From a virus, in IMG/VR virus record IMGVR_UViG_3300045988_122031, positions 29,757-93,756 of that record: a DNA stretch of 64,000 nucleotides; one strand, 5' to 3'. Positions 42,467-60,130 of the stretch are shown piece by piece. A program made the position numbers and the translations under genes. Numbering within the stretch: position 1 is the first letter of the stretch; every line of letters starts with the position of its first letter. The notes under the pieces are model-generated. The model was not told the origin of the DNA. It worked only from the letters and a program-made list of their open reading frames with translations, and did not search any database.

Positions 42467-43495
42467 TTATTCTGCCATGATTTGATGTACACGATAATTC
42501 TTATAGTCCTCATCTTTATATAGGTAACCAATACTTTTACCGATTACCGTTTGACGATCACTAAATTGTTTCTTCTTTATTCTATATGATATATAATAAT
42601 TATAATAAAAATCAATTGCAATATCACTAAATTGACGTGCGATTACAGATCGTGCAATTCCTTCTTTTGATTTAATATAATATAAATCTGCAATTGCCTT
42701 GATATCCATTTTAGATTTTAAATATTGTATAAAACCAGAATTAATAACATCAATGGTTGTCAATTTTTCATAAGATAAAGTATTGCCTGTTAATTCTAAT
42801 TGAGACTGCACATTATTATATATCCTCTTTTGCTCTGCTTTATATTCTTCTATATTATTACATTTTTTTCGTGGTATTAATACAAAATCATCATATATAT
42901 TCGTATCTCCCATTTTCAATTTATATTCATTCAATGTCTCGATAAAATCTTTGGAGACTGGTTTCCCAAAAATTGTTAAATCATTTTGATTAATATCCGA
43001 GAATTTTAGATTTCTTAACTCCTTTCCATTTATCCCATTATATAAACTCACAATGTGAAATCTAGTATTCAATTTGGTATCGGCTGATGCATTGCACGAC
43101 ATCAGATTCGAAATAAACGCATTTATTTTATCTGGCGTAACATAATTAACATTAACTCTATTTGAAAAATATATATCAACTGCTAATTGCAAGTTTATAA
43201 ATTTATCATTAACAAATGGATTATATTTAATGTAATTTTGTTCATATGCATAAGTATACAATTTCACAAGCTGGTCATATCTTTTTTTAATAGAATTCAT
43301 ACTTTTGGTTTTTTTACCTCTAGTATCTGATAATATAGCCTTTTGGATTGTGCCTGGTGCATACGTTAACCCAGATTCATTGTCGTCCGCAATATCAGAA
43401 TCTAATAACCAATTCCATGTTGGGCGACGTGATTCTGATACGTGAGAATCTATATAATTTTGTATCAATTCTTTATTATTCATAACATTCTCCAT
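42467..43495 (-). CDS. Hypothetical 342-aa protein, downstream partner of the MazF-like gene in the AT-rich island
   Basis: Very AT-rich codon usage (N/K/Y/I-rich). No motif recognised with confidence. Confidence 0.55.
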   Translation of the reverse strand: MENVMNNKELIQNYIDSHVSESRRPTWNWLLDSDIADDNESGLTYAPGTIQKAILSDTRGKKTKSMNSIKKRYDQLVKLYTYAYEQNYIKYNPFVNDKFINLQLAVDIYFSNRVNVNYVTPDKINAFISNLMSCNASADTKLNTRFHIVSLYNGINGKELRNLKFSDINQNDLTIFGKPVSKDFIETLNEYKLKMGDTNIYDDFVLIPRKKCNNIEEYKAEQKRIYNNVQSQLELTGNTLSYEKLTTIDVINSGFIQYLKSKMDIKAIADLYYIKSKEGIARSVIARQFSDIAIDFYYNYYISYRIKKKQFSDRQTVIGKSIGYLYKDEDYKNYRVHQIMAE

Positions 43496-44438: not shown

Positions 44439-45185
44439 CTATAAAATCCTAATAATTTGTTCGTAAATTGCAATCGCATTATCTCCTGGAAAGTTCTGGT
44501 TCACATGCATATGCCCAAAGAACCATTTTTGATAAATCACTTTGTCTTTTATTTGCTGTAAATAATCCGTTAACTTGTCAGATTTGTACACTCCTGATCC
44601 TTGATCCATTTGTCTTAAAACAGATGTGTATGGACTATGTGTAATAACGTAATCTACTTGGAAGTCATTTTTCTCTAAATTCATCACACCTTCTGCCATC
44701 TCTTTATCAGATGGCAATTCTTCTTTCCACCAGCTCACATGATTAATCCTAAACATTTTGTCATAATCTCTGTACCATTCATTAATTCTTGGATCGTCTG
44801 GCTCTAAAATTCCATCTTGCACATCATGGGAACTGGCACCGCCAAATGTAAAGAATTTCTTTCCTTGAATTTCAAACACCTGTCCACGCATAAGATGAAA
44901 TACAGAGTCTTTGATCTTGTGAATCTTTCCGCCACACCATTTCTCTACAGGATATTGATATAAGCGGTCGTAATTTTCATGATTCCCACATACAAACAAT
45001 GTAGTAAATGGCTTGTTATCTAACCATTCCAGATTATATCGTTCTTCTTTTGTGTCATGCCACAGTCCAAAATCTCCGCAGATAATCACATAATCATCTT
45101 TGGTTAACTCAACTCCCTCTGGGAAAGAACGACTGTTTAATCGAGTCATCCAATCCCCATGTGTATCTCCTGTTACAAATATCAT
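44439..45185 (-). CDS. Calcineurin-like metallophosphoesterase (lambda-PPase-type Ser/Thr phosphatase)
   Basis: GDTHGD, GDFGLW, GNHE and GHMH motifs in the canonical order. Confidence 0.75.
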   Translation of the reverse strand: MIFVTGDTHGDWMTRLNSRSFPEGVELTKDDYVIICGDFGLWHDTKEERYNLEWLDNKPFTTLFVCGNHENYDRLYQYPVEKWCGGKIHKIKDSVFHLMRGQVFEIQGKKFFTFGGASSHDVQDGILEPDDPRINEWYRDYDKMFRINHVSWWKEELPSDKEMAEGVMNLEKNDFQVDYVITHSPYTSVLRQMDQGSGVYKSDKLTDYLQQIKDKVIYQKWFFGHMHVNQNFPGDNAIAIYEQIIRIL

Positions 45186-46132
45186 ACAATTACTCCTTCC
45201 AATAACTCTTCTAATGCCTGCATATTATCTTCATGTACTCTATCATCTTGATCTGCATCATCTTTGCCAGTCTTATAAGCAAACTTGATAATCTCCATAA
45301 CTCTATCATAACTCACATTAACAACATTTTCCTTCAATCCGTTAAAAGCCCCACTGATAATTTCCTTGTATGTCTGCGCAATATCATCAAACAATACATG
45401 AGTTTCTTCCTCTGTGATTGTTGCATACAGAAATGTCATTGCAGGGCTACTATGATTCAATAATCTCATAAGTGTATACAATACGTTCTGATCATCTTTA
45501 TGATCGACAAGTGTCCAATACACAAAGTTCTTTCGTAATGTATGCGTACCAATATTGTCCTCAATTCCAACTGCTTTAGCACCTTTTTTAACAAAATCCA
45601 AAGCATTTGCTTCAGTCATGTGTCCTGATCCAGACTTACATGTTCCAAAAACATAATCATCCATTGGCACTTCGCCATCAATCTTGACATCATATTTAGT
45701 TCCTGCAACAGCTTCAAAGAAAATATCCACTGCTTCAGTTACCAAATCGTTAAAGTATACAGTTCTGAATTTCTTTGTTTTCTTTTCCTGCTTACGAGTC
45801 TTATCGTTTAATAAATCGCCCCATTTGAGTCTGACGATATCAGAGATACGATATGCTGTATTGTTTCCAACTGCAACCAAAAGATTGTTTCTGGCAGCTA
45901 CATATCGTTTGTACTCTGTGTACGATTTATCAATCTGGTCTCTAAAATATGCATTAAAGGCTGCAAATTTTTCTTTGTTCTTAATTGGATACACTAAAGA
46001 TGATACGCCTTTTTGTTTATTAGATCGAGTCCATTTAGGATTTCCGTCCTTACGTCTTTTGATCTTTGCTTCAGGTTCTTCTGCGTTATTATTGTTTGCT
46101 GTTTTAATAACTTCAAACTGTGTTGCTGCCAT
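45182..46132 (-). CDS. Tyrosine recombinase/integrase family protein
   Basis: YRISDIVRLKWGD (Arg I), GTHTLRKNF (H-x-L-R box) and LLNHSSPAMTFLYATI (His plus catalytic Tyr). Confidence 0.65.
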   Translation of the reverse strand: MAATQFEVIKTANNNNAEEPEAKIKRRKDGNPKWTRSNKQKGVSSLVYPIKNKEKFAAFNAYFRDQIDKSYTEYKRYVAARNNLLVAVGNNTAYRISDIVRLKWGDLLNDKTRKQEKKTKKFRTVYFNDLVTEAVDIFFEAVAGTKYDVKIDGEVPMDDYVFGTCKSGSGHMTEANALDFVKKGAKAVGIEDNIGTHTLRKNFVYWTLVDHKDDQNVLYTLMRLLNHSSPAMTFLYATITEEETHVLFDDIAQTYKEIISGAFNGLKENVVNVSYDRVMEIIKFAYKTGKDDADQDDRVHEDNMQALEELLEGVIV

Positions 46133-47094: not shown

Positions 47095-47814
47095 TTATCC
47101 TGTCATCTGCTTCTCAAACAACTGTCTTTCCAACGCACCAAAATCATAATCACGATCACATTCCAAGTGTGCAAGGTTCGTTACCTTTGGCTTTTGTTTA
47201 GCGTTCTTCTTAGCCTGATTTCGTTCCCAGTTTCGTACTGCTGCCTTCCAGTCTTGCATCTTGCTATTGCCCATCATCCAATCTTTGGCTGTGTAATAAT
47301 CCACAAACTCTTCTGGATCAATCCCATTGTTTCTTTGTTGACAATATCTGGAGACTTGCTCGCAATCAGGCGGTGTGAATCGCTTTATATTATTATTATA
47401 TTTATTATTATTCTTTACTTTCTTTTTATGTGTCGCTTCTGCGTCGTTTTGGTGTCGTTTCTGTGTAGCTTGTTCGTCTACAAAACCTTGATAAACACTG
47501 TAATTTACTATGGTTATGACCGTCTTTTTAGTGTCGCTTTTTACATGTATGATACTGTCGTTTTCCAGTGTCTTTAAAAATTTGATAACCTTTGAATTAC
47601 TCCACCCCCATCGATCACACAATCTTCTGATCGAAGTAACCATCGATCCTCGCTCGACTGTTTCTAAGTTTCCATCAACATACTTAGGTTGATTATTATA
47701 ACCTGCGAGAATAAGTAAGTCAATCATTGCTTGTCCTCTGGCAAATGGTTTGTCTTCCCATAGCCAATGATCTGTAATTTTCCGATGGAGTTTGATCCAT
47801 CCTGTGTTACTCAT
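47095..47814 (-). CDS. Phage replisome organizer / DnaD-domain replication initiation protein
   Basis: N-terminal GWIKLHRKITDHWLWEDKPF...MIDLLILAGY (phage replisome-organizer N-domain pattern W.KLHRK). C-terminal DYYTAKDWMMGNSKMQDWKAAVRNWERN (DnaD-like DWKAA..NW). Confidence 0.55.
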   Translation of the reverse strand: MSNTGWIKLHRKITDHWLWEDKPFARGQAMIDLLILAGYNNQPKYVDGNLETVERGSMVTSIRRLCDRWGWSNSKVIKFLKTLENDSIIHVKSDTKKTVITIVNYSVYQGFVDEQATQKRHQNDAEATHKKKVKNNNKYNNNIKRFTPPDCEQVSRYCQQRNNGIDPEEFVDYYTAKDWMMGNSKMQDWKAAVRNWERNQAKKNAKQKPKVTNLAHLECDRDYDFGALERQLFEKQMTG

Positions 47815-52239: not shown

Positions 52240-53334
52240 CTATTCTTCTGAAATAATTTCCACCGCAGCTTCATAAAATCTGTTGTATAAAGTTGCATTA
52301 GTTTTAATAAGCTGAGATTTAGGAATGCCATGAGCATACTCATCCCAGTTAACACCATTCTCTGTCATCTTAGTGTAGATTTTCCGATAAACAGACGTTC
52401 CGCCTTTAGATTTATTTCCAATATGATTAGCATAATTAGTAATCTTGATTTTCATTTCTTCCCAATCAGGCTGTGCGTTCTCTTTACGGAACTGTCGCAG
52501 AAGTTTTTCCAGTGAATTGACTAGCAGATCAGGATATTTGTCATAACAAAGATCAATCGTTGGTACATTGCCTCTTTCTCTGATGTTATATTTCTCTTTA
52601 TATTCTTTCCGATCCTGTTCCCACACAATACCATATGTGTTAGTCAAATAATTATAAGCTTCTCTTAAAATATCTCTAGTGGTAGTTCCTAGTTCATCTG
52701 ATTCTTTCAAAATATCTGCGATAATTCCATAGACGTTAGATTTCCATTCATTCATCTTATATTCTGCGATTACAGCTTCTTTATCCATCACTGGAATATC
52801 TTTCGTAGGTTTAGCGATCTGCTTATAAAATTCCTTACGTTCAGCTTTCATTTCTTTAACGATATCTGCCAACTGATTAAATCCTTCTATAGTAATCTTA
52901 TACAGGCGTTCATTGTTTCTTTCCATCTGCTTCATAAGCTCTGTCTGCTCTGTAAGAAACTGCTCTACTGTTGTTACAGGAGTTCCTGTTCTTAATTTTC
53001 CATGACGATAAGCCTGTACAATATCCCATACCCAGTCCATAAAGGTGTTTGCCTTTGGCTGTTTACTCCATCTACAAATTTCCATCACGCCACGTTCATT
53101 ATAAAGTATAGTGTCATATTTTTTGTCGTCAGTAGTCGACAATTTGTCGACCACTGAATGTTTATCCAACCTATCTTTATGTCTTTCGTGTATCCTATAA
53201 ATTGCATCCTTCGGATTATCGTACTCCAGTGCCTCTCCAATCTGCTTTCTTGTCATCCAAATATCATCCTCAGCACTATAAAAATCACACGCTATATCGT
53301 TAAATTTTTCCGTTTTAACTAACTGTAGGTTCAT
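52240..53334 (-). CDS. Bro-N domain protein (antirepressor-like)
   Basis: FNDIACDFYSAEDDIWMTRKQIGEALEYDNPKDAIYRIHERH matches the Bro-N pattern. Confidence 0.6.
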   Translation of the reverse strand: MNLQLVKTEKFNDIACDFYSAEDDIWMTRKQIGEALEYDNPKDAIYRIHERHKDRLDKHSVVDKLSTTDDKKYDTILYNERGVMEICRWSKQPKANTFMDWVWDIVQAYRHGKLRTGTPVTTVEQFLTEQTELMKQMERNNERLYKITIEGFNQLADIVKEMKAERKEFYKQIAKPTKDIPVMDKEAVIAEYKMNEWKSNVYGIIADILKESDELGTTTRDILREAYNYLTNTYGIVWEQDRKEYKEKYNIRERGNVPTIDLCYDKYPDLLVNSLEKLLRQFRKENAQPDWEEMKIKITNYANHIGNKSKGGTSVYRKIYTKMTENGVNWDEYAHGIPKSQLIKTNATLYNRFYEAAVEIISEE

Positions 53335-53560
53335 TCTTTACCTTCCTTTCTAAATTTCCTTATTTTTCTCTACACTCATTATTTTTGTATAGTTATATTC
53401 CGTAAACCAATAGGAATAAAATCAACATTTAATTCCAACTATTAGTGTGCCAATCCTAATAGAAACCTATTCTATTCCTATTAGTTCTCTATATAATCAA
53501 CACCTTACCTATTAACAATTCTATGCTTAGTTAATCATTAATTTGTGTATAATAAATTTG
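53335..53560. repeat. Iteron-like repeat cluster (CCTATT/AATAGG and CTATTAG/CTAATAG units, TTCCGT units): regulatory hub or candidate origin
   Basis: ccAATAGGaat, aaCTATTAGtg, tcCTAATAGaa, aCCTATTctattCCTATTAGtt and taCCTATTAAc, all within about 120 bp. They lie between two transcription modules. Confidence 0.45.
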
Positions 53561-53636
53561 ACAAAGAACCGACCTGCCAAATCGGTTCCTGCCAAATATT
53601 TCCGTAAAATAAAAAGAACCTTCCGTTCGGTTCTTT
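53552..53636 (-). terminator. Tandem Rho-independent terminators ending the upstream minus-strand module
   Basis: On the minus strand AAAGAACC-(8 nt)-GGTTCTTT + UUAUUUU, then GAACCGA-(9 nt)-TCGGTTC + UUUGUCAAAUUUAUU. Confidence 0.6.
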
Positions 53637-53656
53637 GCCAAAATTATTATATGGAA

Positions 53657-53893
53657 TTATTTAATAAATGCCGTTCCTATTTTTATAATAAACCAAGTCC
53701 ATAAAATAATAGTAGTTGGTTTATCAATAACTCCTATTGTATCATCTAGTAAGTCAGTATATTTCTTTAAGTTTGTATTGTAATATTCATCAATTAATTT
53801 CAGAGCTGCATTAACAATAAAAACAATAGTCTCTAATGTAATCATTACTCCTACAAATACATCTGAATACCGAATAATCTGTTCTAATTCCAT
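53657..53893 (-). CDS. Small membrane protein
   Basis: Two hydrophobic segments. Confidence 0.45.
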   Translation of the reverse strand: MELEQIIRYSDVFVGVMITLETIVFIVNAALKLIDEYYNTNLKKYTDLLDDTIGVIDKPTTIILWTWFIIKIGTAFIK

Positions 53894-58833: not shown

Positions 58834-59196
58834 TTATTCACATTCTTTCTTTCCGATAAGCTGAATAATGCAACCAAAATCTCCAGCACGATATACTCTA
58901 ATTTTGTCTGCCTTATAATCTGCCATCAATCCTACATCGTCATAGATTTTGAGCCATGCCCTGAATCCTGATGATGTTTCAAATTCCATCTCTAAGGTAT
59001 AGTGATCTCCGATCTTTGCGTTCTCATCCACAATATAAGCATTATATCTTCCATCACAACCAAAATTTAAGATATTCGCCTTCAATCCGTCTTTTGTTGT
59101 GCCTACAAAAATTAAAGCCGCAATATCACTATCCCCAATAAATTCTCTATCGTATTCTTTATATGATTTCATAATTTCCACCTTCCTATTCTTCAT
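58834..59196 (-). CDS. Hypothetical protein
   Basis: 120-aa ORF. Confidence 0.5.
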   Translation of the reverse strand: MKNRKVEIMKSYKEYDREFIGDSDIAALIFVGTTKDGLKANILNFGCDGRYNAYIVDENAKIGDHYTLEMEFETSSGFRAWLKIYDDVGLMADYKADKIRVYRAGDFGCIIQLIGKKECE

Positions 59197-59665
59197 AATT
59201 TTCTAAATCCCAATGTTCTTTTAAAAGCTGGATCACAAACTCAGGATATCCCATAAAGTAATACCATTCATAAGATTCTTCTATCTGATCTAGTTCTTCT
59301 CTAGTAAGATCTTCACAATATTCTTCATTATATCCGTTTTCGTCTGCCCACGTTTCAAAATCCATTGCCGTTTTCTGAAAATCTTTAACCTTATCACTAA
59401 TCCGTTGCAAGTCGTTCTCTTCAATCGTGATTAAAGGTTTTCCATAATCATCGTAAAGATCTTCCCACAAATCATTATTCCATTGGATCTTTGGTTCGTG
59501 CTGGATATAAATGTTTGTTAATCCGTTTACATTCAATCCCGTTGTAGCTACTAATTTTCCAGTTTCTTTTTCTACGCCATAAAACATTCCCGGTTTTACA
59601 CAAAATCCACCGTAAGAGGCGTGTCTAAAATGTTCAGGCAAGATCAGTTCTTTGAACTCGTACAT
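59186..59665 (-). CDS. Hypothetical protein (start moved to the internal MYEFKEL Met; the track N-terminus overlaps a tRNA-like element)
   Basis: GAAGGA RBS before MYEFKEL. The upstream part of the track ORF covers the GGTTCGATTCC-containing element. Confidence 0.45.
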   Translation of the reverse strand: MYEFKELILPEHFRHASYGGFCVKPGMFYGVEKETGKLVATTGLNVNGLTNIYIQHEPKIQWNNDLWEDLYDDYGKPLITIEENDLQRISDKVKDFQKTAMDFETWADENGYNEEYCEDLTREELDQIEESYEWYYFMGYPEFVIQLLKEHWDLENYEE

Positions 59666-59745
59666 AATTTCCTTCTTTCTGCCTATCAGGACTTTAAATA
59701 TTAATAGTTTTCCTTTATTATACACGATAATTTCCATCGTGAAAA

Positions 59746-59827
59746 GTGACGGGATAGGAATCGAACCCACCGATAAAAGCACTCTTTTATCTACCATACG
59801 CCACCGTTTTTCCGTTCCAATACGTCA
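59746..59827 (-). other. tRNA-like element (canonical T-arm and acceptor 3' strand, degenerate 5' half): possible pseudo-tRNA or tRNA-derived site
   Basis: Minus strand ...GTGGG-TTCGATT-CCTAT-CCCGTCA-C, with an upstream TGACGTA pairing 5/7 to the acceptor. The anticodon arm is non-canonical (7-bp stem, 6-nt loop). Confidence 0.3.
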
Positions 59828-60130
59828 CTACCATCAACCAGTAGTACAGTCTTTCCGTTCATATAAAGTAACTATTAGCTTCAATAGTCGAGTCTTTCCG
59901 TTATGGTGTATACTCATATCATCATGAGTAGTAAAAGCCTTTAATTGGCTATGTAACTAAATAATTCTGACGGATCTTCTTTTAAAATTTCCGTCATGCC
60001 GTTAATTGCTTCTTCTTGCGTTCTGTATTTCCGAAAAATTCCGAACGTGTTCTTGAATAATAAGAAGTATTTGTAACCATGTAAGCTATCATCAATTCCA
60101 GCGTTCGGAGGATTTTCCGTAAAGTATAAC
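59800..60130. repeat. Cluster of TTTCCGT(T) direct repeats, including AGTCTTTCCGTT x2
   Basis: cgtTTTTCCGTTcc, cAGTCTTTCCGTTc, gAGTCTTTCCGTTa, aaTTTCCGTca, aTTTCCGaaaaaTTCCGaa and aTTTTCCGTaa. The same core recurs at 53395-53625. Confidence 0.4.

Follow-up and report, generated by a model that had tools for sequence, protein, structure and literature searches.

In phage lambda, the tI/sib element holds a terminator embedded in a longer hairpin which is sensitive to RNase III. Other repeat-bearing control regions are described as well: iteron origins, such as lambda ori in gene O and the plasmid iterons, are made of direct repeats of 17-22 nt together with an AT-rich unwinding element, and operator arrays are exemplified by the Mnt/Arc operators of P22 immI and by the p4 sites of phi29, which are inverted repeats about 15 bp apart. 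We know of almost nothing on the transcription programmes of gut Firmicutes phages. The present study concerns a non-coding spacer of 322 bp (positions 53335-53656), flanked by two minus-strand Bro-N genes, in a stretch of 64,000 nucleotides, hereafter the window, which covers positions 29,757 to 93,756 of the IMG/VR virus record IMGVR_UViG_3300045988_122031. The original prediction, made from the letters alone, had seen here an iteron-like array of CCTATT/AATAGG-type motifs next to two terminators, and had proposed a multi-site binding platform, namely an origin of replication or a promoter array under a common regulator. Our analysis indicates that the spacer very probably consists of terminators and one hairpin, called H2, and not of an iteron array. 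It is a real, strongly conserved and lineage-specific cis-element, and we tentatively read it as a region of intercistronic control at the RNA level, in which termination would be combined with long helices in read-through RNA, mainly of the sense strand.

In the direction of transcription, the spacer holds a terminator T1, a second hairpin T2, a long palindrome P1 which encloses both, a linker, and H2. Like tI/sib, it lies at the 3' end of a gene block and has its stop signals inside a longer dyad, whose extended helix (24 bp) is available only in read-through RNA. Unlike tI/sib, it has two tandem hairpins where lambda has one and shares no sequence similarity with it, and cleavage and antitermination are putative here. 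H2 and P1 also resemble the RNase III hairpins of T7 and T3 in being long, imperfect and A/U-rich, with internal loops, in an intercistronic spacer, and they resemble the early sites of these phages in their place in a one-directional early unit and in the conservation of both sequence and structure; the early regions of T7 and T3, however, have several sites each, whereas the 64-kb window has one H2 and one P1. Bs-RNase III sites comparable to H2 and P1 are reportedly present in the early RNA of the Bacillus phage SP82. The RNase III sites of lambda, T7 and T3 and the retroregulation of lambda int are among the examples cited in PMC5371410.

The PeSL cassettes of T4-like phages are short composite promoter-terminators, present in many copies in each genome, whose effect comes from their repetition (PMC2839356, PMC4122927). 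The spacer is like them a small conserved intergenic regulatory block, with a stem-loop and a possible early-type promoter, beside replaced or inserted genes, but its block is 260 nt long and single-copy in the window. Its likeness to iteron origins, that is, clustered short repeats in a conserved stretch, is superficial only, for the spacer repeats are inverted with cores of 5-7 nt, there is no unwinding element, and the spacer is neither in nor beside an initiator gene. With the operators of P22 and phi29 it has in common a pair of heptamers in inverted orientation, with 14 nt between them (CTAATAG-N14-CTATTAG), ahead of a Bro-N/Ant-like gene; unlike them, the sites do not recur at other promoters of the window and the element persists uncoupled from the Bro-N gene. 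The element belongs to a known kind, the phage intercistronic terminators with processing or regulatory hairpins, and matches no described family.

Results

The motif cluster and hairpin H2

A motif scan of the window bears out that the CCTATT/AATAGG-type words are clustered far above the AT-rich background, because 7 copies of the core CTATT/AATAG lie within 53409-53513 (~105 bp), against a window mean of 2.0 per kb and a maximum of 3 in any 120 bp elsewhere in the window, and because the inverted heptamer pair CTAATAG-N(8-30)-CTATTAG, which occurs once in the window, has 0 occurrences in shuffled sequences. The core is thus enriched about 30-fold, which no other stretch of the window equals. 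The exact words CCTATT/AATAGG are present 4 times in the spacer (53409, 53466, 53477, 53508) out of 25 copies window-wide, and CTATTAG/CTAATAG 3 times (53439, 53456, 53478) out of 10. The copies are, however, not independent direct repeats. According to the repeat finder they fall in two inverted 18-nt arms (53405-53422 and 53469-53486; 89% complementary) with the inverted heptamer pair located between them, and what had been called an iteron-like platform consists of both arms of a single imperfect hairpin, H2, together with its apical stem.

Two further parts of the original prediction hold to the letter only. TTCCGT does occur 3 times in the spacer, but two of the copies (53600, 53621) sit in the terminator part, outside the ~120-bp cluster to which they had been assigned. 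Likewise, the reported recurrence of the motifs at 59800-60130 is literally present, with TTCCGT found five times and CTATTAG once at 59.8-60.1 kb. A link of the spacer to that region is nevertheless unsupported, because the unit actually repeated there is a different element of 43 nt (AACGGAAAGACU plus a hairpin) and because TTCCGT is a common hexamer, frequent on this strand (30 of its 34 copies in the window).

As sense RNA, H2 has a minimum free energy of -26.3 kcal/mol (z = -4.95), against -14.9 kcal/mol as antisense. All 21 distinct variants of H2 independently fold to the same outer stem, and each of them is far stabler as sense than as antisense, with further pairs of values such as -23.6/-2.9 and -31.0/-22.3 kcal/mol. 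In the pair counts, taken from a covariance-model alignment which is biased toward the model structure (MAFFT misaligned the 5' arm of L251, a diverged relative described below), the stem is 99.2% paired with double changes at 2 pairs, and RNAalifold gives the same stem. The common stem variants are all changes of A-U to G·U, of G-C to G·U or of U·G to U-A, compatible with pairing on the sense strand only.

Neither a second copy of an H2 arm (up to 3 mismatches), nor of the inverted heptamer pair, nor a further covariance-model match was found in the 64-kb window. Beyond H2 itself, the covariance model of the outer stem matches L251 at 32.8 bits; neither the rest of the window nor the more distant Bro-N phages gave a match. 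When IMG/VR was scanned with the 14-mer arm AACTAATAGGAATA, almost all of the matches listed were chance ones, a result which does not resolve second copies per genome, and a scan of metagenomes with a length-shifted pattern for diverged H2 returned 1 true relative (L269) and 5 chance matches in coding DNA. A permissive search of the spacer against Rfam 15 gave only sub-threshold chance matches (E at least 0.3); at the Rfam gathering thresholds, nothing but one tRNA at 30 kb was found in the whole window. The H2 interior of L269 (~1020-1036) carries an 8-nt tandem duplication, TAATAGTT, by which the stems are spared. The word UUUACGGAA has just two intergenic occurrences in the window, both of them inside this spacer.

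Conservation among close and diverged relatives

A first set of relatives had been retrieved with an H2 30-mer and was thereby biased; it was replaced by 47 distinct loci chosen through their Bro-N protein (82-100% amino-acid identity). The proportion of invariant positions in this set amounts to 79% for the whole spacer, 82% for P1, 89% for H2 and 65% for the linker, against 24-41% at the four-fold degenerate sites of three flanking genes, and the constraint on H2 equals that of second codon positions. Being far more conserved than synonymous sites, the spacer is clearly functional, and the unit from the stop codon to the invariant UUACGGAAU is under strong purifying selection. The flanks are unusually variable: the 78-amino-acid (78-aa) open reading frame (ORF) upstream and the first ~100 codons of the Bro-N gene (53657-53893, 53100-53240) far exceed the spacer in variability among close relatives, and the ORF has two unrelated 3' alleles which switch exactly at its stop codon.

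Diverged lineages were found by protein search and context look-up, and three of them are informative. In L249 and L250, with Bro-N proteins 55% and 53% identical, a PhdYeFM-YoeB toxin-antitoxin cassette lies between H2 and the Bro-N gene; it starts immediately past UUACGGAAU and displaces the Bro-N gene by ~600 bp. Both keep T1, T2 and H2, with ~93% identity between their H2 sequences, but the linker next to H2 has diverged and they no longer carry the internal CTAATAG copy (site E). In L251, with Bro-N 61% identical, the H2 interior has been swapped for an unrelated longer sequence, by which the arm-to-arm distance grows from 46 to 79 nt, and the outer stem is retained with an A-U to G-C double change, while another pair shows the series A-U / G·U / G-C. 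Among the diverged relatives, then, the outer stem stays, whereas copies E and D inside it have disappeared or been replaced. The spacer marks a defined hot spot for the entry of accessory cassettes into these genomes.

The distant Bro-N phages (36-41% identity; L113-L122, L253-L255) contain no homologous spacer or hairpin, and an IMG/VR search with the most diverged Bro-N protein (P0033) returned matches to the N-terminal domain only. The phages L113-L122 (Bro-N 36%) have a palindrome of their own, ACTATTGATTAATAGT, ~30 nt upstream of Bro-N and just before the ribosome-binding site, and a similar one, ACTATTGAAGCTAATAGT, is present at 59866-59883 of the window.

Terminators T1 and T2 and the palindrome P1

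Of the two canonical terminators claimed, only T1 bears the name out. T1, ~20 nt past the stop codon, is a canonical intrinsic terminator which matches the terminator scan and folds at -9.6 kcal/mol. T2 is a good hairpin with a weak, interrupted U-tract and is missed by the scan; it is a probable back-up terminator. The T2 stem is 100% paired across the 47 sequences, with one compensatory C-G to U-A change in L050, and the T1 stem is preserved in L251 through a C-G to U-A double change, which makes one compensatory event per hairpin; for T1 and T2 together, the pair counts across relatives give 99.0% paired. In L006, L045 and L094 the T1 loop accepts a 6-nt duplication (GGAAGG), and the stems are without duplications.

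The arms of P1 form a 25-nt inverted repeat, 92% complementary, which ranks top among the long inverted repeats of the window; those of P1 and H2 are the two best. The fold has a z-score of -5.6, and its 24-bp helix is 99.6% paired in the 47 distinct sequences (99.4% in the counts for the nested P1 fold). In silico, read-through RNA folds into nested P1 at -36.1 kcal/mol, against -19.7 kcal/mol for both local hairpins, and RNAs which end at T1 or T2 cannot adopt the nested fold and form the local hairpins instead.

Discussion

A reading at the RNA level

That H2 acts at the RNA level is our preferred view, held with some reserve. We favour it because the H2 stem outlives the replacement of its interior, because the common H2 variants can pair through G·U in the sense RNA but not in the antisense, because H2 accompanies the terminators rather than the Bro-N gene, and because the terminators are embedded in a helix which is available to read-through RNA only. 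Transcripts of the upstream block would reach T1 and then T2, and RNA halted at either would end in a short stable terminator hairpin. Read-through RNA, arising for example by antitermination late in infection, would refold into the 24-bp helix of P1 and the 19-bp helix of H2. Such long A/U-rich duplexes are of the class used as substrates by RNase III-type nucleases, so that the read-through message might be processed or destabilised and the upstream and downstream units uncoupled; downstream of H2, a weak promoter and a strong ribosome-binding site would serve the Bro-N operon. A duplex for RNase III-type cleavage has ~20 bp or more, nearly continuous, on the transcribed strand, and P1 offers 24 bp and H2 19 bp with ~99% of the pairing kept. 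By analogy with the phage sites named above, RNase III-type processing may be the specific role, which we consider rather doubtful. If the RNA-level reading is true, the spacer would be a switch point from the early anti-defence/Bro-N block to the replication block, and a clean case of terminator-embedded processing control in gut Firmicutes phages.

Several observations weigh against this reading. Two stop signals precede H2 and there is no convincing promoter between T2 and H2, so that a sufficient flow of RNA across H2 is questionable. In the main lineage the H2 interior hardly varies and carries the heptamer more than once, and the interior of L251, otherwise different, retains CCTATT- and CTAAT-like words, which fits sequence-specific protein binding. 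As for covariation in H2, both double changes come from one sequence, the events are very few, the shuffle controls are not significant (121/500 and 21/500), and the strand bias amounts to 5 sense-compatible versus 2 antisense-compatible events, with p estimated at ~0.03-0.06. P1 shows no clear bias in its wobble changes (6 compatible versus 4 incompatible events), and the palindrome could be the mere trace of an inverted duplication. Rfam has no match.

Competing explanations

The same conserved interior enters the main rival explanation, that H2 is a DNA operator, in which the inverted 18-19-nt arms and the internal CTAATAG/CTATTAG would bind a dimeric or tetrameric regulator and control a promoter at or after H2 for the Bro-N/replication block. 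The regulator could be one of the flanking Bro-N proteins, the N-terminal domain of Bro-N being thought to bind DNA. H2 does sit directly upstream of the first gene past the terminators, its interior is conserved like its stem, the spacer contains the heptamer three times and AATAGG-type words four times, and the CCTATT and CTAAT words kept in the replaced interior of L251 speak for the operator as well. A promoter candidate, TTTACG-17-AATAAT, abuts the 3' arm of H2, and in close relatives its hexamers are invariant and its 17-nt spacer variable. Yet promoter-like matches are at chance level genome-wide and this one is no better than chance; it is split in L249 and L250 and not kept in L251, and promoter prediction between T2 and H2 and past H2 gave no -35/-10 pair consistent across lineages. 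Moreover, H2 is conserved despite the toxin-antitoxin cassette, which brings its own promoter right after UUACGGAAU and leaves Bro-N ~600 bp away; the arm spacing shifts in L251, site E is missing in L249 and L250, and wherever the arms differ, the difference is of the G·U type on one strand. An operator would also be single in the 64 kb examined of a ~160-kb genome, without recurrence at other promoters, and the promoter array under a common regulator that had been proposed finds no sign of a regulon, the motif cluster being found nowhere else in the 64 kb. A promoter with a regulator, its site downstream of or overlapping H2, is possible and not favoured, and we regard the operator as rather improbable. 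That the terminator-hairpin block is a homology patch or a tyrosine-recombinase site for swapping or inserting neighbour genes is less probable again. It is suggested by the homology among relatives, which ends exactly at the spacer edges with the two 3' alleles of the 78-aa ORF joined at the stop codon, by the toxin-antitoxin cassette beginning right after UUACGGAAU, by the 5' part of Bro-N, far more variable than the spacer, and by the two integrase-family genes of the phage (Table 1); gene exchange at conserved blocks has a precedent in the PeSL cassettes (PMC2839356, PMC4122927). PeSLs, however, are multi-copy per genome where this block is single-copy in the window, the 84 + 104 nt are almost wholly invariant, their substitutions preserving the stems, which exceeds what a homology patch needs, and mosaic joints are to be expected where regulatory DNA is conserved, as a by-product which need not be the purpose. 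A more special form, in which H2, and perhaps P1 too, serve as recombination sites of folded DNA specific to one strand, like integron attC, at which tyrosine recombinases insert or exchange cassettes (PhdYeFM-YoeB, the alleles of the 78-aa ORF), is highly improbable. The palindromes which fold better on one strand, the kept stem with its replaceable interior, the homology breaks at the edges and the integrase-family genes all fit it, far from sufficiently, and a single-copy element with no features like R or L boxes and no second hairpin after the inserted cassette runs counter to it; if true, it would mean an integron-like cassette platform in a phage. A Frpo-type single-strand promoter, attC-like boxes, a put-like antiterminator and type III antitoxin repeats were also weighed as readings, and the spacer has no features in support of any of them.

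An origin of replication, in the form of an iteron array bound by the DnaD-like initiator, is very unlikely. Hairpins can occur at origins, the spacer is repeat-rich, conserved and non-coding, and the phage encodes its own replisome. But iteron-length direct repeats are absent: there are only two inverted copies of 18-19 nt, the other copies being 5-7-nt cores in mixed orientation, and the TRF program detects no tandem array in the spacer. The spacer has no A/T-only run of 25 nt or more, with a GC content of 0.29 versus 0.34 window-wide, and lies 5.5 kb from the DnaD-like gene. Cumulative GC skew passes monotonically through it, unchanged, though with genes on one strand the skew mostly reflects transcription. 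With neither iteron-size direct repeats nor an AT-only stretch, and with no second copy of the motif in the 64 kb, the spacer is rejected as the proposed origin. Within the DnaD-like gene itself, RCGACRC repeats stand at an exact spacing of 11 bp (47436, 47447, 47458), with a further copy at 47537, and beside them lies a run of 29 nt made of A and T alone (47384-47412), which no other in the window exceeds in length. This classical in-gene layout at 47384-47538, with iterons of the lambda-O type and an AT stretch, likely represents a better origin candidate at ~47.4 kb, judging from its sequence features, so that the origin of this abundant uncultured lineage of ~160-kb gut phages would lie elsewhere than in the spacer, inside the DnaD-like gene. 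As to mere chance, by which low-complexity repeats would arise in AT-rich DNA and only the terminators would have a function, it has in its favour an AT-rich genome and short motif cores; the ~30-fold unique enrichment, the heptamer pair missing from shuffles, the 89% invariance of H2 against 24-41% at four-fold sites and the stem kept in diverged relatives leave it a negligible probability, and the conservation data refute it. The corrective value of these comparisons is that a repeat-rich spacer which looks like an origin or an operator turns out to be one hairpin with terminators.

Genomic context and feature list

The spacer begins after the stop codon of the 78-aa ORF (53657-53659) and ends before the ATG of the 364-aa Bro-N gene (53334-53332). 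The description of a non-coding stretch of about 320 bp at a gene-block boundary is exact in its coordinates, and no credible ORF lies inside; spacer ORFs of 20-53 aa were rejected, as their frames are broken by indels in relatives. The window has a GC content of ~34%, and all credible genes across the 64 kb are on the minus strand. The upstream block comprises small anti-defence-type ORFs, the 454-aa Bro-N gene and the 78-aa ORF, and at 2-12 kb there are replisome genes for a DNA polymerase of the Pol III alpha type and for two helicases, one ExoV/Dda-like and one DnaB-like. Clostridioides phage phiCD211/phiCDIF1296T and Clostridium phage c-st have polymerases with 35-37% identity to this one. 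When the neighbouring ORFs were compared with Pfam, PHROG, NCBIfam, PADLOC and PDB sequences, no candidate for DNA or RNA binding appeared besides the Bro-N domains. The features are collected in Table 1.

Table 1. Features of the spacer and of related loci, in window coordinates unless another contig is named
Feature	Position	Strand	Remarks
78-aa ORF	53657-53893	minus	comes after the gene for the 454-aa Bro-N protein
P1	53548-53651	minus	second long palindrome, encloses T1 and T2
P1 5' arm	53627-53651	minus	UAUAAUAAUUUUGGCAAAGAACCGA; last 8 nt double as the 5' half of T1
Terminator T1	53613-53636	minus	8-bp stem AAAGAACC/GGUUCUUU, 8-nt loop; U-tract UUUUUAUUUU at 53603-53612
Hairpin T2	53565-53589	minus	GGAACCGAUUU-GGC-AGGUCGGUUCU; 11-bp stem, -12.5 kcal/mol; tail UUUGUCAAAUUU
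P1 3' arm	53548-53572	minus	UCGGUUCUUUGUCAAAUUUAUUAUA; overlaps the T2 3' half and tail
Linker	53488-53547	minus	lowest conservation in the spacer; holds the AATAGG copy at 53508 ('site A'), which varies
Linker block	~53504-53521	minus	AAUUGUUAAUAGRUARGG; present in all lineages
Hairpin H2	53404-53487	minus	84 nt; 60 nt beyond the T1/T2/P1 block
H2 outer stem	53469-53487 with 53404-53422	minus	19 bp; 3 G·U pairs on the sense strand
H2 apical stem	53456-53462 with 53439-53445	minus	7 bp; CUAUUAG with CUAAUAG
Invariant UUACGGAAU	53397-53405	minus	directly 3' of H2; 3' edge of the conserved unit
Candidate weak sigma-A-type promoter	53378-53406	minus	TTTACG-17-AATAAT; 9/12 consensus matches
Ribosome-binding site	53341-53350	minus	GAAAGGAAGG; 6 nt before the Bro-N ATG; read from sequence; kept in all lineages
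364-aa Bro-N/antirepressor-like gene	52240-53334	minus	Bro-N domain matches
DnaD-like/O-like initiator gene	47095-47814	minus	
Integrase-family genes (two)	42467-43495 and 45182-46132		called tyrosine recombinases
PhdYeFM-YoeB cassette	L249 2282-2990; L250 2282-2990 (= window ~53398)		TTGACA-17-TATAAT promoter (consensus), TTGTACA palindromic operator, own terminator

The phage, of ~160 kb, is common in gut metagenomes, with contigs of ~150-170 kb. An invariant 22-mer had 0 matches in 185,579 species-representative GTDB genomes, hence no prophage copy was found there and no host was assigned. On independent ~160-kb IMG/VR contigs (L059, L061, L065, L084 and others) the Bro-N locus lies at 50-54% of the length, and this constant position suggests defined genome ends. 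The identical Bro-N protein is also encoded on two ENA contigs of 270-310 kb, which may be concatemers or misassemblies.

Other observations in the window

At 59798-59940 on the minus strand, ~2.5 tandem units of the 43-nt element, each AACGGAAAGACU plus a short hairpin, stand just upstream of a 203-aa ORF (59186-59797). The TRF program misses this repeat, and the ORF has no match in Pfam, PHROG or PADLOC; the layout recalls the RNA-repeat antitoxins of type III toxin-antitoxin systems, to which it may be likened.

Near 30 kb, long imperfect inverted repeats (29873-29971 and 30382-30453) and palindromes of the TTCAAGAAGTTGAAG type surround a strong divergent promoter, TTGACA-17-TATATT, which adjoins a small plus-strand ORF of the Cro/C1-like helix-turn-helix (HTH) kind. 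The presumed operators of this HTH protein show no evident relation to the spacer's CTATT words. ARAGORN reports no tRNA anywhere in the window; the Rfam tRNA match (42.5 bits) at 30238-30376 on the minus strand extends over 139 nt for a model of 71 positions, and it represents a tRNA gene into whose anticodon-loop region ~68 nt have been inserted.

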